Shown one piece after another: positions 2,368 to 59,538 of a stretch of 64,000 bases of DNA. The stretch covers positions 16,023-80,022 of the forward strand of contig CAVUWV010000026.1 of assembly GCA_963745075.1 (NCBI GenBank), in the 5' to 3' direction. How positions within the stretch are numbered: position 1 is the stretch's first letter; each line of letters opens with the position of its first letter. The position numbers and the translations under genes were made by a program. The DNA is from Candidatus Hydrogenedentota bacterium. GTDB lineage: Bacteria > Hydrogenedentota > Hydrogenedentia > Hydrogenedentales > SLHB01. The notes under the pieces were generated by a model. It was not told the DNA's origin. It worked only from the letters and a program-made list of their open reading frames with translations, and made no database searches.

Positions 2368-2439
2368 TACGCCGAGTGAAAACGTATTTTTAGGGCCGAT
2401 TTTCGAGAGTCGAACTGCGGAAAGTATTGAGGAAGAGTC

Positions 2440-4308
2440 ATGAGCACGCCGAAACAAGTGTTGGATACGTTGGGTGAAGAAACGATGTTGCCGGACCTGT
2501 TGAAAGCCGCGCCAAGTGTCCGGCCGGCACTGGACCGGTACGGATTGCGCGGATGCGGTGGCGAGCACGGTCCGATGGAGACGTTGGGATTCTTCGCGCG
2601 GGCCCATGGCGTTCCGGTGGGGCAACTTCTTCAGGATATCCGGGTAAGTCTCACGGCGACAGAAGTGACGACAACGTCGACGGAATCGTTTTCGGACCAA
2701 ATCGCTGACACCATTTATCAGCCCTTCTTCAAAGGCGGTATCGCGGTGGCCCTCACACTCGGCGCCGTCTGGGGAGCTTTCCTTCTGATCCGCATCGCCC
2801 TGTCGGGCTCGTTCACCGCGGTGGGGATTCAAGAAATCAACGCCCACGGGCACGCGCAGATCTTTGGCTGGGTGGGGCTGTTCGTGATGGGCTTCGCCTA
2901 TCAGGCCTTTCCGCGTTTCAAGCACACGTCCCTCGCCCATCCGCGTATGGCATTGGCCACGATGTGGCTGATGGTGACCGGCATCATTCTTCGGTCGTCG
3001 AGCCAGGCACTGCTCCCGTACACCCATTGGACCGTCAAGTCGGGCATTTTCGGTTCTCTGCTGGAGATTCTGGCGATTGGATTGTTTGTGGGCATCATCT
3101 GGAAGACGCTGCGCCGGTCCGGGAAACCCTTCGCGTTCTATGACTACTACATCCTGAGCGGGTTGGCCTGGTTCTTCCTTCAGGCGGTATACGGCAGCAT
3201 CTACTTCACCGCCACGGCACTGGCCCCAACACGCGACGCGCTCCTGGGACTCGTCTCGACATGGCAGGCCCCACTTCGGGACATCCAGATCCACGGGTTT
3301 GCCATGCTGATGATTCTCGGCGTCAGTCAGCGCATGTTTCACAACTTCTATGGCTTGTCGGCACCCAGCCGGCGGGCGAGTTTGATCGCCTTGCCGCTCT
3401 TGAACGGCGCGGTGATCGGGGAATGCGTGGGATTCATACTGATGCGGACCTCCGGCCATATTTGGACCGCCCTTTGGTACGGGTCGGTCATCACGCTCAC
3501 GGCGACGCTCGCGGTCCTGGTATCGGGCTGGCACATCTACCGGCCCACCGCCGAAGCGGATCGCAGCCTGAAATTCCTCCGCACGGCCTATCTCTGGCTG
3601 TTCGTTTCGCTGACGATGCTCATCGCGCTGCCGCTCTACCAGTTCGGACTGCTGCGCGCCCTCGCCCCGGACAGCGAAGCGGCACGGATTGGTTTCTCCC
3701 ACGCTTATTACGGAGCAGGCCGCCACGCGATTACCGTGGGCTTCATCAGCCTGATGATCGTCGGCGTCGCGGCCAAGGTGGTGCCGACGCTGAAAGGTAT
3801 TGACGTACGCAGCCTGAACGGACTCTGGGTGCCGTTCATCCTGCTGAACGCGGGGTGCGCCATGCGTGTCGGCTTCCAGATTCTCACGGATTTCACCGAT
3901 GTAGCCTTCCCCATTGCCGGGGTGAGTGGCATATTGGAAGTTTCCGCGCTGGCGGTCTGGGGGATCCACTTGTGGTCGCTGATGAACGCGCGCGTGGGCG
4001 CTTCGCCCATGCTGTCCCGGCCCATGACGTTGAAGGCAGGCGAGCCTATCGCTGCACGCAGTGTGGTTGCAGAGGTGCTCCGGGTTTACCCTGAAACGCT
4101 TGAAACATTCTTGAAACACGGATTCAAGCCCCTAGCGAACCCCATGCTCCGGCGCACCGTTGCTGCAACGGTTTCTGTCGAGGGTGCCGCACGCTTGCTC
4201 GATGTTGACCTGGACCATCTCCTGGCCGACTTGAATAGGGCTCGGGTGACACAGGAAGACGACCGAGGTCACCCCGAGGCCGACGGCCTGACCGTGGACT
4301 TGGCCTGA
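2440..4308 (+). CDS. NnrS-like polytopic membrane protein with N- and C-terminal DUF1858-like domains
   Basis: HGHAQIFGWVGLFVMGFAYQAFPRF, IQIHGFAMLMILGV and RHAITVGFISLMI motifs; soluble ends GLRGCGG and VLRVYPETLETFLKHGF. Confidence 0.75.
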   Translation: MSTPKQVLDTLGEETMLPDLLKAAPSVRPALDRYGLRGCGGEHGPMETLGFFARAHGVPVGQLLQDIRVSLTATEVTTTSTESFSDQIADTIYQPFFKGGIAVALTLGAVWGAFLLIRIALSGSFTAVGIQEINAHGHAQIFGWVGLFVMGFAYQAFPRFKHTSLAHPRMALATMWLMVTGIILRSSSQALLPYTHWTVKSGIFGSLLEILAIGLFVGIIWKTLRRSGKPFAFYDYYILSGLAWFFLQAVYGSIYFTATALAPTRDALLGLVSTWQAPLRDIQIHGFAMLMILGVSQRMFHNFYGLSAPSRRASLIALPLLNGAVIGECVGFILMRTSGHIWTALWYGSVITLTATLAVLVSGWHIYRPTAEADRSLKFLRTAYLWLFVSLTMLIALPLYQFGLLRALAPDSEAARIGFSHAYYGAGRHAITVGFISLMIVGVAAKVVPTLKGIDVRSLNGLWVPFILLNAGCAMRVGFQILTDFTDVAFPIAGVSGILEVSALAVWGIHLWSLMNARVGASPMLSRPMTLKAGEPIAARSVVAEVLRVYPETLETFLKHGFKPLANPMLRRTVAATVSVEGAARLLDVDLDHLLADLNRARVTQEDDRGHPEADGLTVDLA

Positions 4309-4349
4309 CATTGTATTGCCAAAAGTGCGACGAGAACTGAGGAATCAAA

Positions 4350-4378
4350 GTAAACATGCATTTCGTTTACCTGTTTAC
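4350..4378. promoter_or_regulatory. Imperfect palindrome, candidate Rrf2 operator upstream of the qNor gene
   Basis: GTAAACAtgcatttcgtttaccTGTTTAC; contains an NsrR-like ATGCATTT half-site. Confidence 0.4.
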
Positions 4379-4476
4379 AGGGATCGGCTCTTCAACCGTA
4401 GCTGAATTGGGACGGAGTCGCCGCAGCCACCGCCGGTAGACGATTTGTGCAGTATCGAACGAGGGAGGAGTCACGT

Positions 4477-6789: not shown

Positions 6790-6870
6790 ATTCGGATTCG
6801 TAGCACGTGTGGTCCTGTATTCGAAGCCCCCAAGGGCACAGTGAAGAATAGAGTAAGAGGAGTTAAAGAT

Positions 6871-7590
6871 ATGACAACCATTTCACCGGAGATCACAATT
6901 GGCCAACTGGTCACGGAGCGGCCGAGCCGGTCGCGGGTATTCGAGAAGCTGGGGATCGATTACTGCTGCGGCGGGAAGAAATCTATCGCCGAAGTGTGTG
7001 AGAAGAAACAGATCGATCCCGCGACGTTGATCGATGTCCTCGATGCCGAAGCGGCCGATGCCCCCGAGGATGGTCCGAACGTGAGCGATATGGCCCTGTC
7101 GGATCTGGCGGATCATATCGTCGCGACGCATCACGCCTATTTGCGCACGGAACTGCCGCGCCTAGGGAAGATGGCGCAACGGGTGGCGAAGGTCCACGGC
7201 GACAAGGACGACCGGTTGCAAGCAGTGAGCCAGACCTTCGATGCGTTTACGGCCGAACTCGATTCGCACATGGCCAAGGAGGAGAACGTGCTGTTCCCGG
7301 CCATCCGACTGGTGGATCGGGCTGACCAGATGCCCTCGCTCCCCTTTGGCCGTGTGGCCAACCCCATCCACTGTATGGAACAGGAGCACGACAACGCGGG
7401 GGCCGCGCTGGAACGTATGCGCACCCTCACCGATGGATTCACGCCGCCGGACTGGGCCTGCAACACCTACCGCGCGCTGTTGGACGGACTTCATGAGCTG
7501 GAGTTGGACATGCACCAGCACGTCCACAAGGAGAACAATGTGCTCTTTCCTGGAATCATTGAGCGTGAAGAGCAACTCTTGAGCGCCTGA
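6871..7590 (+). CDS. ric: Iron-sulfur cluster repair di-iron protein (RIC/YtfE/ScdA)
   Basis: GIDYCCGG N-domain; HHAYLR, HMAKEENVLFP, MEQEHD and HVHKENNVLFP hemerythrin-like motifs. Confidence 0.95.
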   Translation: MTTISPEITIGQLVTERPSRSRVFEKLGIDYCCGGKKSIAEVCEKKQIDPATLIDVLDAEAADAPEDGPNVSDMALSDLADHIVATHHAYLRTELPRLGKMAQRVAKVHGDKDDRLQAVSQTFDAFTAELDSHMAKEENVLFPAIRLVDRADQMPSLPFGRVANPIHCMEQEHDNAGAALERMRTLTDGFTPPDWACNTYRALLDGLHELELDMHQHVHKENNVLFPGIIEREEQLLSA

Positions 7591-7616
7591 CGGTATCGAC
7601 CTCCGTTCCTGTGACG

Positions 7617-7653
7617 AGGCGCACGCGGAATGCATTCGTTCCGCGTGCGCCTT
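7617..7653 (+). terminator. Hairpin after ric
   Basis: AGGCGCACGCGGAA-loop-TTCCGCGTGCGCCTT. Confidence 0.55.
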
Positions 7654-7660
7654 AAGGTAT

Positions 7661-7740
7661 TGTCATTCTGAGCGAAGCGAAGAATCTCGTTTGGGCAATT
7701 GCTTCGGGATTTCAAGATTATTCACTTCGTTGAGATTGAC
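7661..7740. repeat. Degenerate REP-like palindromic element (GTCATTCTGAGCG type)
   Basis: TGTCATTCTGAGCGAAGCGAAGAATCT with a decayed inverted arm; same family as 63481-63558. Confidence 0.55.
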
Positions 7741-7773
7741 GTGAGTTGGGTAGTCGGGACTGTAAGACCGAAT

Positions 7774-8253
7774 TCAGGCAATCACGTCCAACCCCGATGG
7801 GGTGCCGGGGTTGGCCGGGGGCTGGTTGGGAGCAATGCCGGTTTGGCTGTGGGAGAAACGTTGGAGAACGCCTGGCGCCAGCAGTTGTAGGAGTTCTCCC
7901 TCGGGCGTGTTCTGAATTGACGCGACGTAGTCCTTCACGCCCTGACGTCCACCATTCTGAAAGGCGTCTTTAAGGGCGTCCCGCTGATTCCGAATGACGC
8001 TCTTGAGTTCATTCTTGCTCACCTTGCCATCGCCGTCCGTGTCCAGCTTTGCGAACGCATCCTTCGAGAGTCCAGAAAGAACCTGGGCATCCACATCGCC
8101 ATCGCCATCGGGATCGCTCTGGCTGAACAGACGATTCACAATCGTGTCGAGGATTTTCGAGGGGTCTCCCGGGTGGGAGCCATTGACGGGACTCCCGAAG
8201 TTGGCGCCCGAAGCGCTTGAGGGGTTGAACGGGCCGATTGGATTGATACTCAT
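7774..8253 (-). CDS. EF-hand domain protein, probably in the flagellar regulon
   Basis: DPDGDGDVD and DTDGDGKVSKNEL EF-hand loops; low-complexity N-terminus; C-terminal GLDVIA. Confidence 0.75.
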   Translation of the reverse strand: MSINPIGPFNPSSASGANFGSPVNGSHPGDPSKILDTIVNRLFSQSDPDGDGDVDAQVLSGLSKDAFAKLDTDGDGKVSKNELKSVIRNQRDALKDAFQNGGRQGVKDYVASIQNTPEGELLQLLAPGVLQRFSHSQTGIAPNQPPANPGTPSGLDVIA

Positions 8254-8302
8254 TGCGGTCACTCCTTGCAGTTGTGTGCGCTTCGCGCACTTAATCTTCA
8301 GT

Positions 8303-8329
8303 ATGTCGGCAGGAGTGAAGAAAACTTTA
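8303..8329 (-). promoter_or_regulatory. sigma28 (FliA) promoter
   Basis: Minus strand TAAA-gttttcttcactcct(15)-GCCGACAT versus consensus TAAA-N15-GCCGATAA. Confidence 0.75.
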
Positions 8330-8486
8330 GGGAAAAACGGTTGCCTGAATTCAAGAAAAGTTCGAGAGCGGCACGAAGAAGTGGCTAAATTTGTGTTATT
8401 CTCCCGGCGAGAATTTCAATAGACGAGCTGCGTTCGCCAGCACTTTTTCGTTCGCATGCGCGGTACGCTGTCAGGGCAAAAGTCCG

Positions 8487-8879
8487 TTATTCGTGATCCG
8501 TATTCGGCTTCAGCTTGTCCTTGAGTGCTACAAAGGGGTTGTGACCAAGGGACTCGTCCTGGTTCGTGGCAGTGGCGTAGCCGCCGAAGTGGTTGACGCG
8601 ATCGCCTTCCTGGTGGGCGTCGTCGTGGCAGGAAACGCAGAGCAGTTCCCAGTTGCTGCCGTCGGGTGGGTTGTTCATGTGGTCGTTGTCTTTGTGGTGG
8701 ACGGTAAGCTCGCGGAGGTTGTTGCCGGAGAATTCGCGTCCGCAGCGGGCGCAGACGTGCGGAAATAGGGCTAAGGCCTTTTCGCGGTAGCCGCTCTCGC
8801 GCTGGGCTTGTTCGCGCTTGACCTTGGCGATGAACTCGGCCTGCTTCGTTTTGTCGATCTTGACCTTTTTGAGTCGCAT
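8487..8879 (-). CDS. YajD-family HNH nuclease
   Basis: GYREKALALFPHVCARCGREF..NLRELTVHHKDNDHMNNPPDGSNWELLCVSCHD. Confidence 0.88.
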   Translation of the reverse strand: MRLKKVKIDKTKQAEFIAKVKREQAQRESGYREKALALFPHVCARCGREFSGNNLRELTVHHKDNDHMNNPPDGSNWELLCVSCHDDAHQEGDRVNHFGGYATATNQDESLGHNPFVALKDKLKPNTDHE

Positions 8880-9028
8880 AGGGGAAACCTCCGACTCCAT
8901 GATAGATGGCGCAATTGCGTGCGTCAATGGACGGGATGGACATAGCAATTGCAGGGAATCCCCTGACAAAGCTCCATTGTGTGGCGGACCGTGTAGGAAC
9001 CACACGTCCTTTTCCGGCCGGGAATCTC

Positions 9029-9159
9029 CACTGGGAGCGCCTGACTCCAGCCTGGCGAAGGAGCGGAGCGAATCAATCGATAGTGCGGAACCGAAGTCGA
9101 TGCATGGCAACCGGTAGACGCTCCGGACCCCGCGAGGCTGGAGCCTGGCGCTCCCAGTG
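9029..9159. repeat. REP-like inverted repeat pair
   Basis: CACTGGGAGCGCCTGACTCCAGCCTGGCG (9029-9057) versus CGCGAGGCTGGAGCCTGGCGCTCCCAGTG (9131-9159). Confidence 0.7.
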
Positions 9160-9237
9160 ATTTGTTTGCGATGGTGCGGGATTGTGCGGTACCGTGTAGG
9201 GGAGCTGCTCGCATAGCGCGCCGTCCTGGAGGAATCG

Positions 9238-10554
9238 ATGTCTGGTACCGTTCCAGTTCCGAATTTTCACGTCATGGTGAAACCGACCGGTCCGATCTGC
9301 AATCTGGACTGCAAGTACTGCTTCTACCTGGAGAAGGAGAACCTCTACCCCGACGTGTCCAAATGGGCCATGTCGGAGGAGATCCTCGATAATTTCATCC
9401 GGCAGTACATCGCGTCGCAGAAGGCGCCGGAGATCACCTTCGCGTGGCAGGGCGGGGAACCGACCATTCTGGGTTTGCCCTATTTCGAGAAGATCGTCGA
9501 ACTGGAAGAGAAGTACTCGGATGGGCGGCCCGTGCGGAACGCGTTTCAGACGAACGGCGTGCTGATTGATGAGCGCTGGGCCTCCTTTCTTGCCGAAAAC
9601 GAGTTTCTCGTTGGCGTCTCCATTGACGGTCCGCCGAAGTTTCACGATCACTATCGTGTCGATAAGGGCAACCGGCCTACTTCCTCAAAAGTCATGCGTG
9701 CGATCGAGCTGTTCAAAGAGCACAAGGTCGAATTCAATACGCTGACCTGCGTGCAGCGCCACAACGCCGACCATCCGCTCGAGGTCTATCGTTTTCTGAA
9801 GGAGATCGGAAGCGGATTCATGCAGTTCATTCCCATCATCGAGCGCTTGTCCGACGATGAAGAGCAAAAGCTTCGACTGGTGTTGCCGGATTACGATGAG
9901 AAAGCCCGGGTAACACCGTGGTCGGTGCGGCCGCTGCAATACGGGAAATTCCTTTCGGCCATTTTCGACGAGTGGGTCCGGAACGACGTGGGCAATTGCT
10001 TTGTCCAGATCTTTGACATCGCGCTCGAGGCGTGGTACGGGTACGAGCCCAGCCTGTGCGTGTTCGCCCGAACCTGCGGTGACGCGGTCGCGTTGGAGCA
10101 CAACGGCGATCTCTATTCGTGCGATCATTACGTCTACGACGAGAACCGCCTGGGCAACATCATGGAGAACCCAGTCGAGGCGATGGTGGGATCGGCGCAG
10201 CAGCGGAAGTTTGGCCAGGACAAGCAGGACACGCTGCCCAAGTTCTGCCAGGAATGCGACGTGCGGTTTGTGTGCAATGGCGAATGCCCCAAGCATCGGT
10301 TCTTGACCACCCCGGACGGGGAACGCGGGTTAAGTTATCTCTGCGAGGGATATAAGCACTTCTTTCACCACATCGACGAGCCGATGCGGTTCATGGCGAA
10401 CGAACTCCGGCAGCAGCGTCCTCCGGCCAACGTAATGGCCCACATGCGCAAACAGGATTCGGGCCACAAGGGCAACGGACAAGCCGAGCCGAACGATCCG
10501 TGTCCCTGCGGAAGTGGCCGGAAGTTCAAGAAATGCTGCGGACGCACGGCCTGA
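9238..10554 (+). CDS. Anaerobic sulfatase maturase (radical SAM/SPASM) with C-terminal SEC-C motif
   Basis: CNLDCKYC, WQGGEPT, YSCDHYV, CQECDVRFVCNGECPK, NDPCPCGSGRKFKKCCG. Confidence 0.95.
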   Translation: MSGTVPVPNFHVMVKPTGPICNLDCKYCFYLEKENLYPDVSKWAMSEEILDNFIRQYIASQKAPEITFAWQGGEPTILGLPYFEKIVELEEKYSDGRPVRNAFQTNGVLIDERWASFLAENEFLVGVSIDGPPKFHDHYRVDKGNRPTSSKVMRAIELFKEHKVEFNTLTCVQRHNADHPLEVYRFLKEIGSGFMQFIPIIERLSDDEEQKLRLVLPDYDEKARVTPWSVRPLQYGKFLSAIFDEWVRNDVGNCFVQIFDIALEAWYGYEPSLCVFARTCGDAVALEHNGDLYSCDHYVYDENRLGNIMENPVEAMVGSAQQRKFGQDKQDTLPKFCQECDVRFVCNGECPKHRFLTTPDGERGLSYLCEGYKHFFHHIDEPMRFMANELRQQRPPANVMAHMRKQDSGHKGNGQAEPNDPCPCGSGRKFKKCCGRTA

Positions 10555-10575
10555 GGATTTGCGCCACGCCCAACA

Positions 10576-10737
10576 AAGAACATCCCCCTACACCCCCTTC
10601 AAAGGGGGAATTGTTCGCGCGGTCGCGCGCAAAGAAGACATTGCTTGGGCTTGTCCTTGCGGTTCCACACCCCCCCTACCGATAAGCACGAATTCGCAAT
10701 GCTCCCCCTTTGAAGGGGGATCAAGGGGGATGTTCTT
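10576..10737. repeat. Inverted-repeat (REP/MITE-like) element overlapping the modA start
   Basis: AAGAACATCCCCCTACACCCCCTTCAAAGGGGGA (10576-10609) and TCCCCCTTTGAAGGGGGATCAAGGGGGATGTTCTT (10703-10737). Confidence 0.75.
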
Positions 10738-11494
10738 CGTAATGATCGTGCTGGCAACTCTCGGGGTGTCGAACTGTTCCGTAACAAACCGACATCCAGA
10801 ATCGGTTATGCTCTTCGCTGCCGCGAGTACGACGGATGCGATCAGTGACATCGTGAACCGCTTTGAGCAGCAAAACCTCGGGGCGCGCGTGACCACCAAC
10901 TTCGCCGCGTCGTCCACGCTCGCTCACCAGATTGAGTCGGGGGCCGGGGCGGACCTCTTCCTATCGGCCAACGAGGAATGGGTAGCGTATCTTGCCAAGA
11001 AAGGGTTCGTCGCCGAGCGCCGCGACCTCCTGGGAAATCAGTTGGTCGTGGTCGTACCGGCCGGGAGTCCGTTGCGGCTCGAACAACCATCCGATCTACT
11101 GGATGAGAATGTACAACGCATTGCCATCGGCGAGCCGGACGCCGTTCCGGCGGGGATCTACGCGAAGCAGGCATTGACAAAGCTTGGCCTGTGGGAGAAG
11201 CTAAGGGCGAAGTGTGTTCCCTCGGCCAACGTGCGGCAAGCGCTACTATACGTGGAAGAGGGTGAGACCGAGGCGGGCATCGTGTACGCGACGGACGCCG
11301 CGATCTCCGACAAGGTGCGCGTCGCGTTTGCATTTAATTCATCCGCGCACGAGCCAATCGTGTATCCACTGGTGTTGCTGAAGCACGGCGCGGAGACGCC
11401 GGGTGCGAAGAGGTTGTATGCGTATCTCGCGGGTCCGGAGGCTGCAAAGGTCTTTCGCGAATCGGGGTTTACGGTGTTGGATGGTGGCGAGTGA
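10730..11494 (+). CDS. modA: Molybdate ABC transporter substrate-binding protein (start uncertain)
   Basis: FAAAST, NFAASSTLAHQIESGAGADLFLSAN, VPAGIYAKQAL, GIVYATDA. Confidence 0.92.
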   Translation: MFFVMIVLATLGVSNCSVTNRHPESVMLFAAASTTDAISDIVNRFEQQNLGARVTTNFAASSTLAHQIESGAGADLFLSANEEWVAYLAKKGFVAERRDLLGNQLVVVVPAGSPLRLEQPSDLLDENVQRIAIGEPDAVPAGIYAKQALTKLGLWEKLRAKCVPSANVRQALLYVEEGETEAGIVYATDAAISDKVRVAFAFNSSAHEPIVYPLVLLKHGAETPGAKRLYAYLAGPEAAKVFRESGFTVLDGGE

Positions 11495-11540
11495 TCCCGA
11501 CAAACAAACGTACGTTTTTGGCCGGCATGGATTAGAAGAT

Positions 11541-11565
11541 GGATTCCCGCGTAGCCGGGAATGAC
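11541..11565. repeat. Short REP-like palindrome
   Basis: GGATTCCCGCGTAGCCGGGAATGAC between modA and modB. Confidence 0.5.
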
Positions 11566-11612
11566 GGTGCTGAGTTGACGCGCGGTTTGACTCATCGAGC
11601 CTATCGTCTGAC

Positions 11613-49129: not shown

Positions 49130-49933
49130 TCAGTACTGCGCCAGCGTACCGTCACGTTTGGCTTTATTGACAGCCATATCGAACAGTTTCAGGCTTCCTG
49201 GCAGTAGGACCAGGGCCATGCCCCCGAGCAAAAGCAGCTGCGGTGCCACACCACTTATCGTAAAATCCTGAAGCATGGTCAGCCGCAGCGCATCCAGCGC
49301 ATACATCGCCGGAATTATATGCGCCACGTTTTGCAGCCAGTGCGGCATGACTTCTACCGGAAAGTACGCTCCGCCCAGGATCATACTCGCCGATGTAAGG
49401 ACCCAGCCCACCGGGTCGCCCTTCTTCAGAACGACGATGCATGCCGCGGAGACAATGCCAAAGCTAATGAAAACGAGCAAAGCAAGGGCGAACACGACCA
49501 ACGACGCAATTACATTGACATGAGAAAAGTCCACGCCAAAAACCACCGCGCCACAGACAAGAATAATGGCAAGCTGCAAGAACGAGGCGAGCAATGCATA
49601 CATGGTCGACATGAGAATACATGCCTGCGGCGACGTCTGAGTGCTGAGCATGGCTTCGAGACATCCCGTGACCTGCGCGCGTTGAATCGAGTTGGAGTAT
49701 GTGTTTAACGCCACTTGGAAGTACCGGGAAAAGGCCAATCCGATCAACACAAAGGAGAAATAATCACCACCGTATTTGGCAAGGCTCTCCTGAGACGAAT
49801 CGACAATGCGGCTCACAAAATAGAACATGACCAGGGGCAACAACGCGCCGATCGCACTGAGCAAATACGCCATTTTGTAACTCGACTCGGTCTGAAAGTC
49901 GCGTTTAATGAACGTCCACGTCTTGTACAGCAC
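49130..49933 (-). CDS. ABC-2 type exporter permease (RiPP cluster)
   Basis: About six TM segments; GGAYFPVEVMPHWLQ; C-terminal KRDGTLAQY. Confidence 0.88.
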   Translation of the reverse strand: MLYKTWTFIKRDFQTESSYKMAYLLSAIGALLPLVMFYFVSRIVDSSQESLAKYGGDYFSFVLIGLAFSRYFQVALNTYSNSIQRAQVTGCLEAMLSTQTSPQACILMSTMYALLASFLQLAIILVCGAVVFGVDFSHVNVIASLVVFALALLVFISFGIVSAACIVVLKKGDPVGWVLTSASMILGGAYFPVEVMPHWLQNVAHIIPAMYALDALRLTMLQDFTISGVAPQLLLLGGMALVLLPGSLKLFDMAVNKAKRDGTLAQY

Positions 49934-49945
49934 GGCCGCTCCTCG

Positions 49946-50713
49946 TCACATCACCAGTTCGCGATACCGCGCGAACAGTGAACCGGGCCGGGAATGGATT
50001 TGTGCTACGTCATCCGAGGCCGCGATGCGCGCCTCTCGAACCACACACATCCGGTTACACAGGGCCAGCACTTCATCCAGCTTGTGTGTGGCAATCAGCA
50101 GAGTCTTTTCGTGATATCGGTGTATGCGATCGATCAACAGTTTCGTAAGGTCCTCCGCGGCGACCGGGTCCAACGCCCGCGTCGGCTCGTCGAGAATGAG
50201 TACGTCAGGGTCGGCCAACAGCCCGCGGGCGATTGCCAGACGTTGCCGCATGCCCGATGAATAACCCGCAACCTGCTGGTCTGCGCTGTCTTCCAAACCG
50301 ACCAGGTTCAGCAATTCGCGAATCCGACCTTGCAGTACCGGTCCTCGCAAATTGTCCAGGACACCGAAGAACTCCAGGTTCTGCTTCGCCGTCAGGCGCC
50401 AATAAAAGCTGCGCTCCTCGTTCATGACGAACCCCACTGATTTCCGGGCCGCCGTGTTTTCGCGAGACGTATTCCGACCGTTGACGCGAACCGTCCCCTT
50501 TGTCGGTAGGATGAGTCCGCCAATCACCTTCAGCAGTGTGGTCTTCCCGGCTCCATTGGGACCTAAAAACGCCACCCGTTCTCCACGTTCTACGGTGAAC
50601 GTAACGTCTTCGATACCCGTGACGCGTCGCGGCGGCGTGAATGGATGCAACACGTACTCCCGATACCGCTTGGGCACGGGGTAACAGACTGTGACGTTTT
50701 CCAGTGCAATCAT
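49946..50713 (-). CDS. ABC exporter ATP-binding protein (RiPP cluster)
   Basis: GPNGAGKTT, YSSGMRQRLAIARGLL, ILDEPT, ATH. Confidence 0.93.
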   Translation of the reverse strand: MIALENVTVCYPVPKRYREYVLHPFTPPRRVTGIEDVTFTVERGERVAFLGPNGAGKTTLLKVIGGLILPTKGTVRVNGRNTSRENTAARKSVGFVMNEERSFYWRLTAKQNLEFFGVLDNLRGPVLQGRIRELLNLVGLEDSADQQVAGYSSGMRQRLAIARGLLADPDVLILDEPTRALDPVAAEDLTKLLIDRIHRYHEKTLLIATHKLDEVLALCNRMCVVREARIAASDDVAQIHSRPGSLFARYRELVM

Positions 50714-50749: not shown

Positions 50750-51988
50750 TCAGCGGAGACGACGGACGAGGGACGGACCATGCCGTATCGCCAACCGGGC
50801 AGGCCGGGAAATGTAGTGCAATGCCGAGAGAACCGCCGGCAGTCCGGGAAGCACGTATTTGTCGTTGAATTCGGGGGTCGCGATGGCACGCGTGTACCGC
50901 AGACGTTCCTCGATGGGCGACCACTCCCGGCCCCAATCGGCCCGGATCGATCGAAAGGCACGCACGAACTCGCGCCATTCCTGGAACCCGGGCAAACCAA
51001 ACCCTTTTCGACTCAACCGACCCAAAACCAGCCCCGCGTAGGCGAGCGCCTGAGGATACCGCGCCAGACGCGCGTGAACAACAGAGGGCATGGGTGCGTT
51101 CAGCAACACCGATGCCAGGTACACCCCTAGCAGGATCGCACGCTCTTCGTCGAGTCGCGCCGCCAACTCCAGCACTTTGTGCCAGTCCATCTCCGGATAG
51201 TTCGCCACGATGCGCGCGACATCGGCGAGAAGCTTCAGCTCGCCCCATCGGTGTTTAATATCGGCATGCAGAAAGGAGACAACTGCGGCGCACTCCGGGG
51301 ATAGCGTGAGCATTCTCGCACCAAAATGCTTTCCCGGTCGCACATGGTTCCAAACGAAGTTGGCAGACGCCGCGCCACCCATGACAGGCGGCATCAACCG
51401 CCAATGCAGTTCCAGTGATTGACCGTGAATCGGAGTGAAGAACACTTCTTCGCAGTCCCAGGCGCGTAACCGGCTTTCGCGGCCGCGGTCATGGCTGTCT
51501 TCCGGAGTGTAGCCGTTGTCCACCAGCAGTTTCCGGGCCCGGGCGACATCGCTCTCCACGACAAGCACGTCCAAATCCCAGATATGCCGATGGGAAATAT
51601 CGCCGTAGAGCAGCCGGGCCTGCACGGGACCTTTATAGGGTAACAACGGGATGGACGCCGCTTCGAATAATTTCGTCACTGCGACCAATTCGCTAACCAG
51701 CAACAAATTGCGCCGAACCACGGTCGCCTTCTCAACGCGAAGCTTCTCGACCACGTCGACTGGTACCAATCCAAGTCCAACCTGGTTCAAGCGCCAGTAC
51801 AGCAGGGATGGAATGGCGTGATGATTCGTACAATCCAGAACGTAGTCCCAATCCAAATCTAAGTCAAGGAGAATACGAATGCGCTCAACTCTGCCATCGG
51901 AATCGTCGACCCCGGCCGCGCAAAAAAGCAATTCAGCCTCCGGACGAATCGGCAGGCCCCCGGCTGTTGATGCCGCCTCAGCCATCAC
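50750..51988 (-). CDS. Nucleotidyltransferase family protein (NTP_transf_5-like; RiPP cluster)
   Basis: LPYKGP...LYGDISHRHIWDLDVLV, LELHWRL, LKLLADVA motifs. Confidence 0.85.
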   Translation of the reverse strand: MMAEAASTAGGLPIRPEAELLFCAAGVDDSDGRVERIRILLDLDLDWDYVLDCTNHHAIPSLLYWRLNQVGLGLVPVDVVEKLRVEKATVVRRNLLLVSELVAVTKLFEAASIPLLPYKGPVQARLLYGDISHRHIWDLDVLVVESDVARARKLLVDNGYTPEDSHDRGRESRLRAWDCEEVFFTPIHGQSLELHWRLMPPVMGGAASANFVWNHVRPGKHFGARMLTLSPECAAVVSFLHADIKHRWGELKLLADVARIVANYPEMDWHKVLELAARLDEERAILLGVYLASVLLNAPMPSVVHARLARYPQALAYAGLVLGRLSRKGFGLPGFQEWREFVRAFRSIRADWGREWSPIEERLRYTRAIATPEFNDKYVLPGLPAVLSALHYISRPARLAIRHGPSLVRRLR

Positions 51989-53064
51989 ATCTCGTCAACG
52001 GCCGATGCACGGACACCGCCGTTCGCCAGTGGTCCCTCGTCAAAGGCTCCCGCCCGCGCCGTGCCCTCGAGAAAGTGAAGATAGGCCTTCTTCTTCAGGG
52101 TCGTCAGAGCCGTGAGTTCCGGCGGCAAACCCCGGAATACGCGCTCGATGAGGGGTCGAGGATCAGCCGCGATACCGCCCGCAAACACAGCGACTGCCTT
52201 CGGAAACACGTCGTCGGCCCACTCCGGTTTGACGTGCAAGGCAGCGCGCAACATACGTTGTGCCGGTTCGATCTCGTTGAACGCGTACGCCCGGCACGCT
52301 GCAAGCAGATCGAAACGCGCCTCGATCGTTTCACGTTCCGCTCGAATTTCATCGGGAAGGTCGGTCCGAGCGAACCATTTGTTCGTCATGCGGGCCACGC
52401 CTTCCCGGTAGGCCGCTCCGCCAAGACTACCCATCGTGTTAAGATCGTGCAGCCGATAACACGAAACCACGTTCTCTATCCATGCCATTTTGCATCCCCC
52501 GAACACAAGGCGGACAAAAAAGTCCGTGTCTTCAAAAGGTTCGACTTCGCGATCGAACGGCACGTCGAGGTCCTCTACAACTGCGCGTTTGGACATCACC
52601 GCCGACAGGTTGAGTGCGCCAAAATTCTCCACACAGTCACGCCAATCAAGGTTGGGCGCCGTCTTCCAGGGGCGCGCATTTTGTATGGGCGAACCGCTAG
52701 AATCGACGTATTGAAAGCCGGAAGCCACCATGCCAATTTCAGGGTGTTCCTCCAGAAACACGACTTGAACGTCAATCCTCTCCGGGAGAAACAAGTCGTC
52801 GTCGTCCACAAAAACCACGTACCGTCCCGAGGATTCCTCGAAACCGAGGTTGCGTGCGGCGCTGCGACCGCTGTTGACTTGGTGGACGACACAAATGCGC
52901 GGATCGGTCAATGACGCAAGGTATGCGTCTGTGTCGTCGGTACTGCCATCGTTCACAACCACCACTTCCCAATCCTGGCACGTCTGGGCCAGAACACTCT
53001 GGATCGTCTCCTCGAGCAGCGAGCGCCGGTTGTACGTTGGGACGATGACACTTACAAGGTGCAT
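51985..53064 (-). CDS. Glycosyltransferase family 2 (RiPP cluster)
   Basis: VSVIVPTYNR, VVNDGSTD, GRSAARNLG, FVDDDD, EDTDF. Confidence 0.92.
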   Translation of the reverse strand: MHLVSVIVPTYNRRSLLEETIQSVLAQTCQDWEVVVVNDGSTDDTDAYLASLTDPRICVVHQVNSGRSAARNLGFEESSGRYVVFVDDDDLFLPERIDVQVVFLEEHPEIGMVASGFQYVDSSGSPIQNARPWKTAPNLDWRDCVENFGALNLSAVMSKRAVVEDLDVPFDREVEPFEDTDFFVRLVFGGCKMAWIENVVSCYRLHDLNTMGSLGGAAYREGVARMTNKWFARTDLPDEIRAERETIEARFDLLAACRAYAFNEIEPAQRMLRAALHVKPEWADDVFPKAVAVFAGGIAADPRPLIERVFRGLPPELTALTTLKKKAYLHFLEGTARAGAFDEGPLANGGVRASAVDEM

Positions 53065-54138
53065 GCCGATTCACTTTCTTGCCTCATGCCGCAGATGGAC
53101 AGTGCATGCCGCTGCAAGAACATGCGGTACGCTTCCTTCTTGCATAAGCGCAGGGACGCCAGGCTCTCCGGCAGATGGTCAAAAGCGTACTCGATGTAAG
53201 GACGTGGATCGCTGATGCGAAACCCAGCGCAGCGGACCAACGTTTTCAGTGTTGCCGCCGGTACCCACGCAGCATCCCATTCACAGGCCACGCTAAAATG
53301 CTCCCCGGCACGCTCCGTATCCTGCACCGTCAACGCTCGGCATGCGCACACGACATGGTAGTTCGCGTACACCCGCGGGCGGTCGTTCAGAACCTCGCCC
53401 GGTAGGTCCGGCAAAGCAAAAGCCTTGTCCAATGCTCGGCGATACGCCGTAGCAAGATCCGCACTTCCACCGGCGCGATCCGTCCCTCGGACTCGATAGA
53501 GGCTGACGAATTGCGGCTCAAGGGCTGCTTCCCCGGCCACGTACATCAAGCGCAAGAAAAAGTCACCGTCTTCCGCCAGGTCCATCGTCGGGTCGAACCA
53601 CTCGCTCATCTCGGCCAACAGGGCCCGGCGAAAAAGCACCGTACTCGTAATCATGTGGGGCCCGAACAAGGCACTGTGAAAGGTCAATCGATTGACGTTC
53701 GCGCCACGGCGCAAATTTCCCCAACTCCCGGCCCGCCTCATCCACGTACGTGGCGCCGCCGGTTACCACCGCACACTCCGGGTGGGCCCCCAAATAGGCC
53801 GTTTGCATCCCAAGCTTTTCAGGCAGGTATTCGTCATCGTCATCGAGAAACGCTACGAATTCACCGCGGGCTGACGCTAAACCCCGGTTTCGTGCCGCAC
53901 TTCGGCCGCTGTGCCGTTGACGAATGATCCGCACACGCAGGTCGTCCTGGCGCCACTCCTTTGCGCCGGCTTCGTCCGATCCATCGTCCACGACAATCAC
54001 TTCGAAATCGCCAAACGATTGCCGCAACACACTGTCGACCGCGGAAGCCAAGAATAGACTTCGATTGTACGTGGGAATAACAACGCTTACCGCCGGCCCC
54101 GTTTCGGTCTTGCCCGCCCTGTAACGTTGCCTACTCAT
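53052..54138 (-). CDS. Glycosyltransferase family 2 paralog, apparent frameshift at ~53665 (RiPP cluster)
   Basis: VSVVIPTYNR, VVDDGSD and FLDDDD in one frame; EDGDFFLRL and a C-terminus paralogous to the next gene in another frame; ATGA overlap with the kinase stop. Confidence 0.85.
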
Positions 54139-55100
54139 ACCGCTGCGGGAAGGTCCGCCTCCACCAGATCCACTAACCGCGATAAGTCGCCCAACGATGC
54201 GCTCCGTGTCAGGGTGCGAACCGGCACGCACTTCGCCAATTCGCCAGACTGACGGAAGCACTCGCCCAACCGCCGATCCTTGAGGAATCCCCATCCGAAC
54301 TTCGACAAGTCCCAATGGGGCATGAGGGCCAGTTGCGCCTGCTTCGCATCGAGCGGCGTGATTCCCGGTTTGGACGCCGTTTCCAGGATATACATCCGTT
54401 CGAGCGGAGCTGGATCTTCGCGGAAGCGGCGTGCTACTCCACAAGACCGTTTGTCTGTATCGTCCCGGATTCGTGGAAGCGCTTCGATAGCGACGTTCAG
54501 GGCTTGAGCGGAATCCGGCCACAACTTAAACCGCGGAAAGCCGGGCAGGGCCAGAGGCCTACGGGTGGTCAAATCGAGGACCAAGACGTCGTCTGACAGC
54601 AGCGTGTGGCCCCTTCCATGCAACGCGGCGGCAATGGTGGTTTTACCGGCATGGGGATGACCGAGAAAGGCTGCCGCCATGCCGTCCACGCATACAACGC
54701 TGCCGTGAAACACCCAAAGGCCGCGCTGATGCAGCGCAATATTCAGGGCGGCGCCGAGGATGAAAAGGCGAAGGGTGGATGGTTTCATACTCGGATGCGG
54801 GTCCAGAACGATCTCTCGCCCCCCGCGAAACAAGAATCGGCCTTCGCCCGGCGAGTACAGCGTCATCTCGCCATTGCTATCCTGATACGTGCAGCACCAG
54901 TCTTTCTCGTTCGGCAGGGGGGGCAGGGGCCGGATTTTGAGGACCAGGTCCGCGCAAACCCCTTGGCCCTCTGGACGGACACGTAACTCGGGCAGTTGAA
55001 CTTCTGAATCCAGCTCAACTCCATATGCATCATAGTGAAAAATTCCCGAACCTTGGGTATCGGGCATTTCATCCACTGCGCTAAATCGATCTAAACTCAC
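54135..55100 (-). CDS. HPr-kinase-like P-loop kinase (lasso-cluster-type kinase)
   Basis: YDAYGVELDSE, LHQRGLWVFHGS, GHPHAGKTT Walker A, LLSDDV, KLWPDS. Confidence 0.85.
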   Translation of the reverse strand: MSLDRFSAVDEMPDTQGSGIFHYDAYGVELDSEVQLPELRVRPEGQGVCADLVLKIRPLPPLPNEKDWCCTYQDSNGEMTLYSPGEGRFLFRGGREIVLDPHPSMKPSTLRLFILGAALNIALHQRGLWVFHGSVVCVDGMAAAFLGHPHAGKTTIAAALHGRGHTLLSDDVLVLDLTTRRPLALPGFPRFKLWPDSAQALNVAIEALPRIRDDTDKRSCGVARRFREDPAPLERMYILETASKPGITPLDAKQAQLALMPHWDLSKFGWGFLKDRRLGECFRQSGELAKCVPVRTLTRSASLGDLSRLVDLVEADLPAAV

Positions 55101-55479: not shown

Positions 55480-55593
55480 TTAGGTAAACGGACTGAACGG
55501 CCGACCGTGGCCGTGTCGCCATTGAGTCAGGTTGCTGACACTACCTCGCACAACAAGAACCGGACGCACGTACGGTTTCTTGACTCCTGCCAT
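55480..55593 (-). CDS. RiPP precursor 2 (37 aa): MAGVKKPYVRPVLVVRGSVSNLTQ-WRHGHGRPFSPFT
   Basis: Read manually (below ORF-track cutoff); RBS GGAAGGAG; lasso-type leader YxxPxL-x3-G-x5-T; leader 18/24 identical to precursor 1. Confidence 0.85.
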   Translation of the reverse strand: MAGVKKPYVRPVLVVRGSVSNLTQWRHGHGRPFSPFT

Positions 55594-55694
55594 GGAATCG
55601 ACTCCTTCCCTGCGATTAGCAGACACGGCGGCGCGGACGCAATTACAGTCGAAAGGCCTTAAGCTCTCAATGCTCTGCAGATCAACTCCGCAGC

Positions 55695-55799
55695 TTACGG
55701 ACCAATCGGGCTCACTGCTGGTGGCATTTGTGTCAATTCACTGACGCTGCCACGCACTACGAGAATAGGTTGCTCGTACGGTTTTTTAGCTACAGCCAT
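55695..55799 (-). CDS. RiPP precursor 1 (34 aa): MAVAKKPYEQPILVVRGSVSELTQ-MPPAVSPIGP
   Basis: C-terminal end of track ORF 55695..56063; true start ATG 55799 after AAGGAGGTGA; lasso-type leader motif. Confidence 0.85.
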   Translation of the reverse strand: MAVAKKPYEQPILVVRGSVSELTQMPPAVSPIGP

Positions 55800-55861
55800 C
55801 AAATCACCTCCTTCCCTGCAATCCACACCCGCGCCGCCGCACGTCTGTTTGGAGACTGCAT

Positions 55862-56299
55862 CTATCGCCCCTGTCCGGGCGACGGAAATGGTACATATCG
55901 GTCCACCTGTGGTGAGCCACCCAAGATGATACTTCCTTCCTGCTCCAACCAAGCATGCGCTTCGAACTGTCCGCTTTCGTTGTGTCCCACGCCAATACGC
56001 AAAACCGATGAACTCCCCAATCGCCCCAACACCCACTTTGCCGCCAGCGCCTTCACCAGGCACGTCACCCCCGGTACGTAACGGCCGGCCTTCTCGACAG
56101 CCCAGACAACGTCACGCCCCGTCGCACTTGCGTCCCGCACCTGTCGCGCCTCGCGTTCACCCACTTCGATGCGCCGACGCCACAACCGAAAGGGCAACAC
56201 TCCCACGACGACCCTCGCGACACAGAGCGCCAACCACATCCGAAAAAAGAGCCGTCGACGGTCCCCTGAAAGCCTAACGAATTTCCGAAGTCGTTCCAT
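55862..56299 (-). CDS. Lasso-type leader peptidase (B2, transglutaminase-like)
   Basis: TCLVKALA...LRIGV...FEAHAWLE with catalytic Cys/His and a following acidic residue. Confidence 0.92.
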   Translation of the reverse strand: MERLRKFVRLSGDRRRLFFRMWLALCVARVVVGVLPFRLWRRRIEVGEREARQVRDASATGRDVVWAVEKAGRYVPGVTCLVKALAAKWVLGRLGSSSVLRIGVGHNESGQFEAHAWLEQEGSIILGGSPQVDRYVPFPSPGQGR

Positions 56300-56585
56300 C
56301 AGCGTATTTCACGAGGTCATGTTGGGCCAAATCCCGGAGCAGATCTTGCAAGTCCCGCTCGCAAGTTTCACGATCAACGTCGTACTCGTCCAGAATCACG
56401 TCCCGAACGTCCCCGAATCGTTGCGGCGTCTGCAGCAGTTTCCAGATGCGGGCGGCAACGGCGTCCATCTCGTAGTACTTCCCATCAGCCAGATTGAGAA
56501 TGACTTCCGCCCCTTCCAACTCACAGGAAACCTGCTCTTCGCTGGCCACGAGGACAGAGCCGTCGGCGATTTTGTCAAGATCCAA
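56274..56585 (-). CDS. PqqD-family RiPP recognition element (B1)
   Basis: VSCELEGAEVILNLADGKYYEMDAVAARIWKLL...EYDVDRETCERDLQDLL; RBS GGGGAGG. Confidence 0.93.
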   Translation of the reverse strand: MDLDKIADGSVLVASEEQVSCELEGAEVILNLADGKYYEMDAVAARIWKLLQTPQRFGDVRDVILDEYDVDRETCERDLQDLLRDLAQHDLVKYADGTTSEIR

Positions 56586-57024
56586 TTATCCTCCCCCTAA
56601 AATCATGGACCGGCCCCTTCCCCAAGTCCCGGAATAGCAGCAATATTCATACCGACCGTATTACCTAAGTCGAGCACTCACCCATACAACATCCAAAGCA
56701 CTGATTATAGGTCACTTAGAGACATAAGCCTCCACCTGAAATACCAAATTCCCGAGGACCGCGAATATTTCCGTGAATACTGATTGGTCGTGGCTGACAA
56801 ATATGTGATCAAGCGAACACCGCATATGAGCCGCACGAAACCCTGCCACGACCGGACTCGTAACGCGGCATCAAAGGCCAACGACAAATCCTCGTTGGAC
56901 ATGATATTCCAACTTCTCACAGCAATCCCGCGCTGGAATTCTGAATTCCGACGAACTCGTCCGGCTAGCGCGAACATTCTAATTCCTGTCAAGCACTTCT
57001 GAGGACGATGATTGTCGGACCGTG

Positions 57025-57555
57025 GCCACTCGTCCTAAAAAGACTTCCCGCCACCCAGTCGTAGAATCCTGACACGGAGGGATTGTAACGATCGCTGATG
57101 CTGGATCCGAAGCCGAGGCCCTCGTTGTATCAGCCGCCGCTCACGCTAGCCGACACACCGGGTGTCGCGTTGAAGAGACCCGCTAAGAACCCACCATCGC
57201 TGGAGTACTCATGCTCCAGGCCAACCACCAGGTTATACGAGCCCCAACGACCATACACGACGGTAGAGGGCCGTTAGTTGTAGCCGGTAATGGAGTTCCC
57301 GCGCCCCGAGAGCCCCGTGCTGTCTTCCGTATCGCCGCTGCCGCTGCGAATGTGGACATTACAGCCCTCAATAATGAGATGCGGTCCGTTCACTCCGTTA
57401 ATAAAACCTTCATGGACGCTAACATTGGCAAGTTTGGCTTCGAGCGCTTGGACTCGACGCTCCAAGATCATCTGTGGGGAACCAAAGAACGTGCCCTTCG
57501 AGAGGGCAAGCATGACAACAGCAAATATGGTGAATTTGCGCGCGAGGTGAGTCAT
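57025..57555 (-). pseudogene. Decayed exported protein with G/N/S-rich (SVSGG..N) repeats
   Basis: Frame reads on through TAA (57274) and TGA (57130): GNSITGYN*RP..GSYNLVVGLEHEYSSDGGFLAG..SASVSGG*YNE..GFYDWVAGSLF. Confidence 0.6.
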
Positions 57556-57752
57556 GGTGGTTCTCTCATGGCTGGGCGGGACCACCCCGTCAAAATCAAG
57601 AGCGGTCTTGCCTGTTATCTGAGGTTCGACCTTTGAATGGATGGAGCAGGTCCGTTATAGAGTGGGATCACAAATTCCGAAACCCTTGCCGCTTCAAAAA
57701 TGGTATTCAACCGCAACCTTGGGCCTGACGGAATTACGGTGGAATTACAAGC

Positions 57753-57797: not shown

Positions 57798-57873
57798 TGG
57801 TGGAGCTGAACGGGATCGAACCGTCGACCTCTGCATTGCGAACGCAGCGCTCTCCCAGCTGAGCTACAGCCCC
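57798..57873 (-). tRNA. tRNA-Ala (anticodon CGC)
   Basis: GGGGCTGTAGCTCAGCTGGGAGAGCGCTGCGTTCGCAATGCAGAGGTCGACGGTTCGATCCCGTTCAGCTCCACCA; 76 nt, G3:U70 pair, encoded CCA. Confidence 0.97.
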
Positions 57874-57951: not shown

Positions 57952-59538
57952 TGTCGAAACTCTTTGATAATGTCCCCTGGAAAACTCATTAGAAATGTCC
58001 CCATGGTTGCGGCCTTAGAAAGGAGGCTGCGTGGAAGGGGACATTTTGATGAGTCGCAAGGAGCGTACGCGCAAGTCGGTGTTGGATCGTGTGAAGAGTG
58101 GTGCGTTGAAGCTGCGTGAGGCGGCGGAGATGCTGGGGTTGAGCTACCGGCAGTGTAAGCGGGTGTATGCGCGGTATCGCCGGGAAGGAGATGTAGGGCT
58201 GGTTCACCGGCGGCGCGGGAAGTCGTCTGCGCGGGCCAAGCCCCCGGAAATGCGGGAGAAGGTGCTGGCGCGTTACGAGGAGCGCTACAAGGGCATGGGT
58301 CCGACGTTGGCGGCCGAGAAGCTGGCGGAGGAGGGTTTGGTGCTGGACCACGAGACGCTGCGGCGCTGGCTGATTGCGGCGGGGCTTTGGCAACGAGCCC
58401 GCAAACGGGGTCCCCATCGAACGCGGCGGCCGCGTAAGGAGCACTTCGGAGAGTTGGTCCAGTTCGACGGCAGTCACCACGCCTGGTTCGGTCCCGACTA
58501 TCCCCGAGCGTGTCTGATGAATCTGGTGGACGACGCCACGGGGCGTACCTTGGCTACGATGGATGTCCAAGAAACCACCGAGGCTGCCATGCGGACCCTG
58601 TGGAAGTGGATTGAGCGTTACGGCGTCCCCAAGGCGCTGTATTGTGACCGCAAGACCGTATATGTCACGGAGCGCGAACCGACGGTGGAAGAGCAGTTGG
58701 CGGACGAAGAACCCTTGACCAGCTTCGGAAAAGCCTGTAAAAAGCTGGGAATTCAGATCATTACCGCCTACAGCCCTCAAGCCAAAGGCCGGGTGGAACG
58801 CAATCACGGCGTCTATCAAGACCGCCTGTTCCACGAACTGCGCTTACGCCAAATCACCACCATTGAGCAGACCAATGCCTTACTGGAAAACGGCTTCGTC
58901 GACCACCTCAACGAAAAGTTTGCCCGTCCCGCACAAAAGACGCATAACCTCCACCGTCGGCTCCCCAAGAACGTCGACCTGCGCGACGTGTTCTGCTTTG
59001 AAGAGTACCGTACCGTGGGCAATGACTGGACCGTTCGTCACCAAAACCGCTTTTTCCAAATACACAAAACCAAGAAGCACTTGCCCAAACCGAAGCACAA
59101 GGTCCTCGTACGCACTTGGCTCGATGGAAGCATTCACCTCGTGTACAACGGTCACAAACTCGACTATGAACAACTCGACGAACCGCCGTGCAGACCCGCC
59201 AAGCCCGCCGCGAAAAAGCCCAAGGCCAGCACCCCCCCATCAAAACCAAAACCCCGCCACGACCACCCATGGCGCAAGCGGCGCGTGGCATGATGGCCAG
59301 TGGCATCGGAAAGAACCAATGAGTTTTTCGCTTTGCAGGATTCCGGTTACAAAAAGCCGGGACAGCCACCCCACCCGGGGTGGCTGTCCCGGAACCGTCT
59401 ATCCACCTGACGGGCGCTCAGGTCGCTCTCCAGCGTTGCCCTATCCTCCCGCCAAGTCCACCTACTGTAGCAGAAAACAAAAAACAGGGGACATTTCTAA
59501 CGAGTTAACACCGGGGACATTTTAATCGAGCTTTGACA
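57952..59538 (+). mobile_element. Insertion sequence, IS1202/ISNCY type
   Basis: About 51-bp imperfect TIRs (TGTC...GACA), each with two AATGTCCCC subrepeats, around a single transposase. Confidence 0.9.
58031..59293 (+). CDS. DDE transposase (IS1202/ISNCY type)
   Basis: N-terminal HTH, FGELVQFDGSHHAWF, VDDATG, ALYCDR, AYSPQAKGRVER. Confidence 0.95.
   Translation: MEGDILMSRKERTRKSVLDRVKSGALKLREAAEMLGLSYRQCKRVYARYRREGDVGLVHRRRGKSSARAKPPEMREKVLARYEERYKGMGPTLAAEKLAEEGLVLDHETLRRWLIAAGLWQRARKRGPHRTRRPRKEHFGELVQFDGSHHAWFGPDYPRACLMNLVDDATGRTLATMDVQETTEAAMRTLWKWIERYGVPKALYCDRKTVYVTEREPTVEEQLADEEPLTSFGKACKKLGIQIITAYSPQAKGRVERNHGVYQDRLFHELRLRQITTIEQTNALLENGFVDHLNEKFARPAQKTHNLHRRLPKNVDLRDVFCFEEYRTVGNDWTVRHQNRFFQIHKTKKHLPKPKHKVLVRTWLDGSIHLVYNGHKLDYEQLDEPPCRPAKPAAKKPKASTPPSKPKPRHDHPWRKRRVA

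Follow-up and report, generated by a model that had tools for sequence, protein, structure and literature searches.

Two short reading frames, A1 and A2, in the 64,000-nucleotide stretch of Candidatus Hydrogenedentota DNA analysed here (the window) almost certainly encode genuine precursor peptides of a functional pathway that has no cyclase. Its product is probably a linear peptide that is phosphorylated on serine and then glycosylated, released by the protease B2 and exported. We found the cluster in five of 135 Ca. Hydrogenedentota genomes and on three long metagenome contigs.

The precursor genes and their operon

Both precursor genes lie on the minus strand. A1 (55799-55695) encodes MAVAKKPYEQPILVVRGSVSELTQ followed by the core MPPAVSPIGP, and A2 (55593-55480) encodes MAGVKKPYVRPVLVVRGSVSNLTQ followed by the core WRHGHGRPFSPFT. 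The leaders are 24 residues long (55728..55799 for A1, arranged as Y(-17)xxP(-14)xL..G..T(-2), and 55522..55593 for A2), and the cores with their stop codons occupy 55695..55727 and 55480..55521. Conservation predicts that the modified serines are encoded at 55710-55712 in A1 and 55492-55494 in A2. As the first-pass annotation had claimed, the leaders are identical at 18 of 24 positions and each ATG is preceded, at a distance of 4-8 nt, by its own Shine-Dalgarno sequence (AAGGAGGTGA at 55804..55813 for A1 and AAGGAG at 55602..55607 for A2). Likewise as described there, the 10- and 13-residue cores contain no Asp or Glu: A2 has no acidic residue at all, and Glu in A1 is confined to the leader (positions 9 and 21).

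The leader consensus of A1/A2-type precursors in our alignment, YxxPxLxVRGSVxxLT, has the [Y/W]xxPxL...T(-2) arrangement expected of lasso leaders. The strict leader pattern has three matches in the whole 6.8-Mb genome, namely A1, A2 and one within a 637-aa frame. The NCBIfam lasso leader model NF033521 (cut-off 19 bits) scores A1 at 23 bits and A2 at 17.1 bits, just under the cut-off, and one member of this precursor family is already labelled a lasso-leader protein by NCBI. The A1 unit has been duplicated in tandem to give the A2 unit (70% identity over 120 nt), and the 19 leader codons compared between the two give a dN of 0.14 and a dS of about 2. The near-unique leader pattern, the NF033521 scores and the leader dN/dS together argue that A1 and A2 are not chance reading frames. 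Scanning with a profile of the precursors revealed no additional copy in the five cluster-bearing genomes and one weak match in genome G125.

A1 and A2 are part of a minus-strand operon with the order B1–B2–A1–A2–HprK-like kinase–GT2–GT2–NTP_transf_5–ABC-2 exporter, in which several start and stop codons overlap. The identical gene order is found in four of the eight genomes of another genus (g30) of the same family (G126, G128, G129 and G132). B1 (56274..56585, 103 aa) is a discrete RRE of the PqqD family and the predicted leader-binding protein; it matches PF05402 above the cut-off with 64 bits, and its best NCBIfam match, lasso_PqqD_Bac, falls under the cut-off. B2 (55862..56299, 145 aa), the only one in the genome, is a lasso-type leader cysteine protease that matches PF13471 and NF033537 above their cut-offs and retains the invariant residues Cys80, His115 and Glu113/Glu119 in the alignment, so that the RRE and the catalytically equipped B2 expected of a lasso cluster are both present. 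A predicted complex of B1, B2 and A1 scored 0.71, against 0.65 for a control in which B2 was swapped, and does not count here as evidence for either view.

Downstream of the precursors, weak matches to PF07475 and TIGR04352 together with alignment assign the next gene (54135..55100) to the HprK-like peptide kinases of the PadeK/PsmK/BsfK/LppK type, with invariant His132, Walker A Lys153 and Asp170-Asp171 and 61-66% identity to its orthologues. It is followed by two family 2 glycosyltransferases, GT2a (53052..54138, PF00535) and GT2b (51985..53064), the latter an intact paralogue, 37-38% identical to GT2a, with a GT-A fold and a helical C-terminal domain. The PsmN/LppN-type nucleotidyltransferase (50750..51988, PF14907 with 173 bits) has kept its WDLD (DxD) motif in all five aligned orthologues, and we found no solved structural relative for it. 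Profile matches identify a DrrA/NodI-like ABC transporter ATPase (49946..50713) and a DrrB/NodJ-like ABC-2 type permease (49130..49933). A scan for promoters and terminators returned nothing exceeding shuffled sequences. The first-pass annotation had overlooked that a cyclase is missing from the cluster, and that the kinase, the two GT2s, the PsmN-type enzyme and the ABC-2 exporter point to its chemistry.

No lasso cyclase is encoded in the cluster, and none scores above the NF033535 cut-off in any of the five cluster-bearing genomes (90-96% complete). Eleven Asn-synthase-like proteins from these genomes score best as AsnB/EPS amidotransferases, whereas NF033535 is the best-scoring model for all six cyclases taken from related lasso loci (two of the six under its cut-off). 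A cyclase or amidotransferase encoded elsewhere could act in trans to form a ring or an amide, since Asn-synthase-family genes are present in each genome and the genomes are incomplete. We consider this very unlikely, because every core lacks a side-chain carboxylate, several of the distant amidotransferase-like genes sit among glycosyltransferase genes, and a profile search of these genomes found no other precursor with the A1/A2 leader type. Separately, an Asn-synthase-like gene of this genome (G000 C13:163820-165519), beside a glycosyltransferase gene, was matched in two frames and is apparently split; it reached 52 bits on the NF033535 scan and lies outside the 11-protein comparison.

The operon is preceded, 1.2-2.7 kb upstream, by a tRNA-Ala(CGC) gene (57798-57873) and then an IS481-like transposase gene (58031-59293). 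This element has six full copies in the genome that are at least 99.9% identical, which points to a recent expansion. The tRNA was the only hit of an Rfam scan, and no repeat of its 3' end that could mark an att site was found. At 57010-57585 on the minus strand, a 103-aa reading frame with no Pfam match is followed by an apparent broken remainder of the same gene, with stops in a Gly/Ser/Asn-rich stretch; this is possibly a pseudogene. Further away, the translations of a gene block at 2440-7590 of the window resemble a qNor-like nitric-oxide reductase, an NnrS-like protein and iron-sulfur repair proteins.

Core peptides, selection and an enclosing RNA stem

The family has ten distinct cores: MPPAVSPIGP, WRHGHGRPFSPFT, LLPSPVSP, LIPPVSPI, APPISR, QPPPGSPSLP, VPSPSLP, LIPPPVSP, LIPSPVSP and LIPPPVSPSQ. 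They are 6-13 residues long with 37.5% Pro, none has Asp, Glu or Cys, all have Ser, and nine have Ser-Pro, APPISR being the sole exception. The A1 and A2 cores both carry P-x(1-2)-S-P-hydrophobic (PAVSPI and PFSPF), a motif common to the orthologous cores. The serine is always internal, at residue 3-10 and 2-6 residues from the C-terminus, and no core ends in Ser. As a control we used 24 cores from 20 of the 21 cyclase-bearing loci examined (six more cyclase loci that gave no pattern match were excluded). These are 17-40 residues long with 7% Pro, and all 24 contain Asp or Glu, in 23 cases at positions 7-10.

All ten family cores thus lack both the Asp/Glu at positions 7-10 and the length of about 15 residues or more that characterise a lasso core, which bears out the earlier claims that the cores are too short and that real precursors with a lasso-type leader are here unable to form a macrolactam. 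Of the proposed conserved leader with hypervariable, unrelated cores, the leader part stood; the cores instead share a Ser(-Pro) site and a Pro-rich composition. The argument from the unusual first residues Met and Trp is weak, as the cores of cyclase-bearing relatives begin with G, Q, K, S, A, R, H or T. An indel restoring an acidic core, put forward as a refutation, cannot explain the cores, because the A1 core reads in the same frame as the orthologous ones (LIPPVSPI against MPPAVSPIGP) and the shifted frames of A2 give no acid at positions 7-9. Their shared Ser/Pro make-up, set against the longer acid-bearing control cores, shows that the family cores are selected short Pro/Ser peptides rather than random tails.

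An RNA stem provides a further conserved feature. A 15-bp inverted repeat with arms about 190-197 nt apart encloses A1, together with its ribosome-binding site (5' arm 55829..55843 and 3' arm 55622..55636, minus strand), and each of the g30 precursor genes (L044, L045, L047 and L048); A2 has no stem of this type. Across nine sequences 99.3% of cells are paired, with two two-sided and four one-sided changes, a level reached by 8 of 500 shuffles; the two two-sided changes both distinguish this genome from all the others and so count as one event each. Pairing is predicted with a probability of 0.79-1.0, and most of the Shine-Dalgarno sequence is paired. A perfect repeat of at least 10 nt is found around only 2 of the 24 control precursors. 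The fold of the whole region is not significant by itself (z = -1.46); support for the stem comes from covariation. Our guess is that it acts in processing or stability of the precursor mRNA.

B2-sized matches (E < 3e-9) occur in 12 of the 135 phylum genomes including this one, and we examined the 11 others. The kinase search agrees with the five-genome distribution of the whole cluster, giving close orthologues in 5 of 135 genomes and in none of the five other genomes of this genus. Because four of the five cluster-bearing genomes belong to one genus, they amount to about two independent lineages. A pattern scan of metagenomes gave 10 loci, eight of which are family members, three spanning the whole operon; being near-identical to the g30 copies, they are not independent of them. 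The remaining two were set aside, L089 as a chance match and L097 as a normal lasso precursor.

All eight enzyme and transport genes are under purifying selection (dN/dS 0.04-0.38 over six genome pairs, with noise added by first-possible starts for some orthologues and comparisons involving this genome near saturation). In a kinase tree of 36 rows, the five family kinases form one clade (100/100) inside a poorly resolved group of cyclase-bearing loci, its neighbours coming from cyanobacterial, verrucomicrobial and other cyclase-bearing loci. A quick B2 tree agrees (family clade support 91). With the root placed by midpoint only, this nesting fits an origin of the family from a lasso cluster with kinase tailoring that lost its cyclase.

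The family could also represent a decayed lasso cluster that has lost its cyclase, has eroded cores and makes no product. The patchy distribution and the nearby IS element would agree with this, as would GT2a, whose reading frame is interrupted in this assembly by a single additional base near 53688-53703. GT2a is intact in all four orthologous genomes (tblastn and DNA alignment). Its halves are each 52-58% identical to intact orthologues and have a dN/dS of 0.16-0.27, like intact genes, so the gene either broke recently or is split by an error in the assembly. Purifying selection, however, acts on all genes and on the leaders across a dS of at least 1.5, and the core motif is conserved, the RNA stem covaries and precursors have been duplicated in two lineages. 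A decayed, productless cluster is therefore extremely unlikely and, for the family, largely refuted.

Relationship to known systems

The most similar cyclase-less pathway is that of the linear polyphosphorylated peptides (LPPs) of Bacillota (lppA-K-B-S-D-N; Popov et al. 2026, PMC13381572), which, as in our cluster, combines a discrete RRE, a YxxP leader, an HprK-like kinase, a PF14907 protein and an ABC exporter. Its product is linear and Ser-phosphorylated, and by analogy we predict the same here. LPP clusters differ in having a SipW/SpI serine peptidase, the leader motif YxxPxVLxHQxIxFETxxS, an MsbA-like exporter and precursors of 35-200 residues, with a 45-residue core in the case studied (PMC13381572). 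Our cluster, from the phylum Hydrogenedentota, instead has the lasso B2 cysteine protease, a true lasso leader with T(-2), 6-13-residue Pro/Ser cores, two dedicated GT2s and an ABC-2 exporter. A Pfam scan of all cluster reading frames and two upstream ones found no SpI/SipW-type peptidase, B2 being present instead, and Hydrogenedentes are not mentioned in the six supplements of the LPP paper (PMC13381572).

Pseudomycoidin (psmC-A-K-B1-B2-N-D, PMC6993621) and paeninodin (pade, PMC9266682) share with our cluster the split B1/B2, the HprK kinase and the PsmN-type DxD enzyme, and the kinase His-Lys-Asp-Asp and PsmN DxD motifs described for them are intact here. Their chemistry, phosphorylation of Ser and then addition of hexose (PMC6993621, PMC9266682), is predicted by analogy for our cluster as well. 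These pathways differ in having a cyclase C, a ring acid, 15-30-residue cores with a C-terminal Ser and no dedicated GT2 pair. The Bsf lasso cluster of Bradymonas (bsfA-B1-B2-C-K-N-D, PMC10368454) has in common RRE-assisted phosphorylation of an internal Ser, which we predict here from the likeness, and is set apart by its cyclase, Ile(-2) and a 21-residue core. In PadeK and BsfK substrates the Ser position is fixed, whereas here it varies.

We used a 15-row structure model of GT2b (pLDDT 81; a single-sequence model with pLDDT 42 was discarded). Its closest folds are the glycan and teichoic-acid GT2s TarS, RmlT, CgT and SpsA (Z 23-26), with TarP also among the best matches, and the glycocin enzyme SunS lies further away (Z 13). 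Glycocins have a Cys-rich core and a C39 exporter. Together with the davasins, in which the GT2 IgtG acts on a lasso Ser, they exemplify iterative GT2-type glycosylation of Ser or Cys in RiPPs, but without a kinase/NTP5 relay, and davasins are lassos (PMC11912497). GT2 substrates cannot be read from the fold, and the likeness of the GT2b model to TarS, RmlT and CgT is compatible with peptide acceptors.

Taken together, the cluster belongs neither to the lasso peptides, as it has no cyclase and no core acid, nor to the LPPs, from which it differs in peptidase, leader motif and exporter type. Its mode of action may resemble that of the LPPs and a ring-less version of pseudomycoidin tailoring. 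What is particular to it is the combination of a Pro-Ser-Pro core, two GT2s of its own, an exporter of the ABC-2 type and the RNA stem around the precursor gene. In the literature searched, which covered papers outside subscription, no cyclase-less cluster with B2 processing and two GT2s turned up.

The cyclase-less theme recurs in the phylum, as a second type is separately placed: L046 (G101, about 7170-11610) and L049 (G035, about 6830-10430) encode kinase, B1, B2 and NTP_transf_5, and in the trees both the kinase and B2 of these loci branch apart from the A1/A2 family. They have four and three short precursors, respectively, with the leader YxxPxVVE[YF]G, V or I at -2 and cores sharing [IV]-x-S-L (for example VNIQSLVG, PIQSLTNG and QIQSLRG), and neither genome has an NF033535 match above the cut-off. 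Cluster representatives searched with a profile yielded 16 matches, among them lasso-leader peptides with 6-11-residue cores (P0061, P0062 and P0070/P0076, the last a tandem pair in Cyanobacteria MAGs). Short acid-free cores among these, known from the peptides alone, are VLVSPN (P0061), QIPRPISP (P0062) and VPSGVVVPI (P0070). A P0070 query against 401 cyanobacterial genomes hit two, both with ordinary lasso clusters that include a cyclase.

Three further loci were noted. L072 (7721-11448) and L074 (7925-11480) from Acidobacteriota encode an ABC-2 exporter, B1, B2 and NTP_transf_5, and we found no cyclase, kinase or precursor within them. L051 (G047, 1732-8262) encodes a kinase-like protein, an RRE, NTP_transf_5, a lasso-leader precursor with the core SFGSGSGSDGGSSKFWKEGKEWYKEGKDGW and several reading frames with no Pfam match; no cyclase was seen in the locus.

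Proposed pathway and its meaning

We propose that A1 and A2 are the precursors of a cyclase-less offshoot of kinase-tailored lasso pathways. B1 would bind the YxxPxL leader and help the kinase, as its family and BsfB1 suggest, and the HprK-like kinase would phosphorylate the conserved core Ser in the manner of PadeK, PsmK, BsfK and LppK. LppK and BsfK have been reported to phosphorylate an internal Ser (Ser3) of a linear precursor (PMC13381572, PMC10368454), and a linear Ser-phosphorylated intermediate is quite likely here. PsmN with its DxD is reported to be required for the addition of one or two hexoses to phospho-Ser (PMC6993621). By analogy, the PsmN-type enzyme would put the first hexose on the phosphate and the two GT2s would probably extend the glycan, as the resemblance of the GT2b model to glycan GT2s suggests; these are the least certain steps of the scheme. 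Should the frameshift prove genuine, the GT2a step may be missing in this genome. The presence of PF14907 does not necessarily imply glycosylation, because LppN caused no visible change of product in the LPP study (PMC13381572), and the variable position of the core Ser also speaks against the scheme. B2 would cut after T(-2)-X(-1), that is, after LTQ, plausibly on a linear phosphorylated substrate as BsfB2 does in vitro without a cyclase (PMC10368454), and the ABC-2 transporter would export a 6-13-residue Pro-rich linear glycophosphopeptide. We speculate that the prolines and the glycan replace the lasso knot as protection against proteases.

The pathway might instead stop at a linear phosphorylated or phospho-nucleotidylated peptide, with NTP5 transferring NMP and the GT2s acting elsewhere or on an NMP sugar. 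PF14907 has a nucleotidyltransferase fold, PsmN was inactive in vitro and might supply a host glycosyltransferase with its substrate (PMC6993621, PMC11912497), and in the second cyclase-less type (L046, L049), which also has kinase and NTP5, no adjoining GT2 was found. We nevertheless hold this outcome unlikely: in all five genomes the interval between kinase and NTP5 is filled by the GT2 pair in overlapping reading frames, and the C-terminal part of GT2b, used as a query, matches only three proteins, all of the family clade.

The Pro/Ser core could also be a mere scaffold for a longer oligosaccharide, with NTP5 initiating on phospho-Ser, the GT2s alternating and the ABC-2 transporter exporting a glycan-rich product that acts at the cell surface or in signalling. 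The cores are very small and, Ser and Pro apart, subject to drift, the two paralogous GT2s are kept under selection, the closest folds of the GT2b model are glycan-extending GT2s, and the best matches of the ABC-2 genes include NodI/NodJ-type exporters; LPP and paeninodin clusters are also reported from polysaccharide loci (PMC13381572). On the other hand, the conserved block contains no polymerase, flippase or sugar-nucleotide genes, and lasso loci that do have a cyclase (such as L065, L083 and L086) can carry ABC-2 exporters too, so we regard such a product as rather improbable. A ribosomal peptide serving as a glycan primer, in which a repurposed RRE and B2 handle a minimal phosphorylated Pro-Ser-Pro peptide that receives a sugar cap from the PsmN-type enzyme, is extended by the alternating GT2s and leaves the cell as a peptide-phospho-oligosaccharide, with precursor supply set by the stem, is an idea we consider possible but doubtful.

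The cluster makes the role of PF14907 (PsmN/LppN/BsfN) easily testable in a fixed eight-gene operon with two dedicated GT2s and synthesisable substrates of 6-13 residues. If true, a short and tolerant Ser-Pro tag that becomes phosphorylated and glycosylated would be a handy engineering module. In the literature searched, this is the first RiPP pathway found for Ca. Hydrogenedentota. It would represent a second route by which kinase-tailored lasso pathways lost their ring, here with retention of the canonical B2 protease and leader. Since both are kept without a ring, the lasso leader with B1 and B2 would be a module of general use in RiPP processing, and numbers of lasso peptides obtained by genome mining would include linear products.
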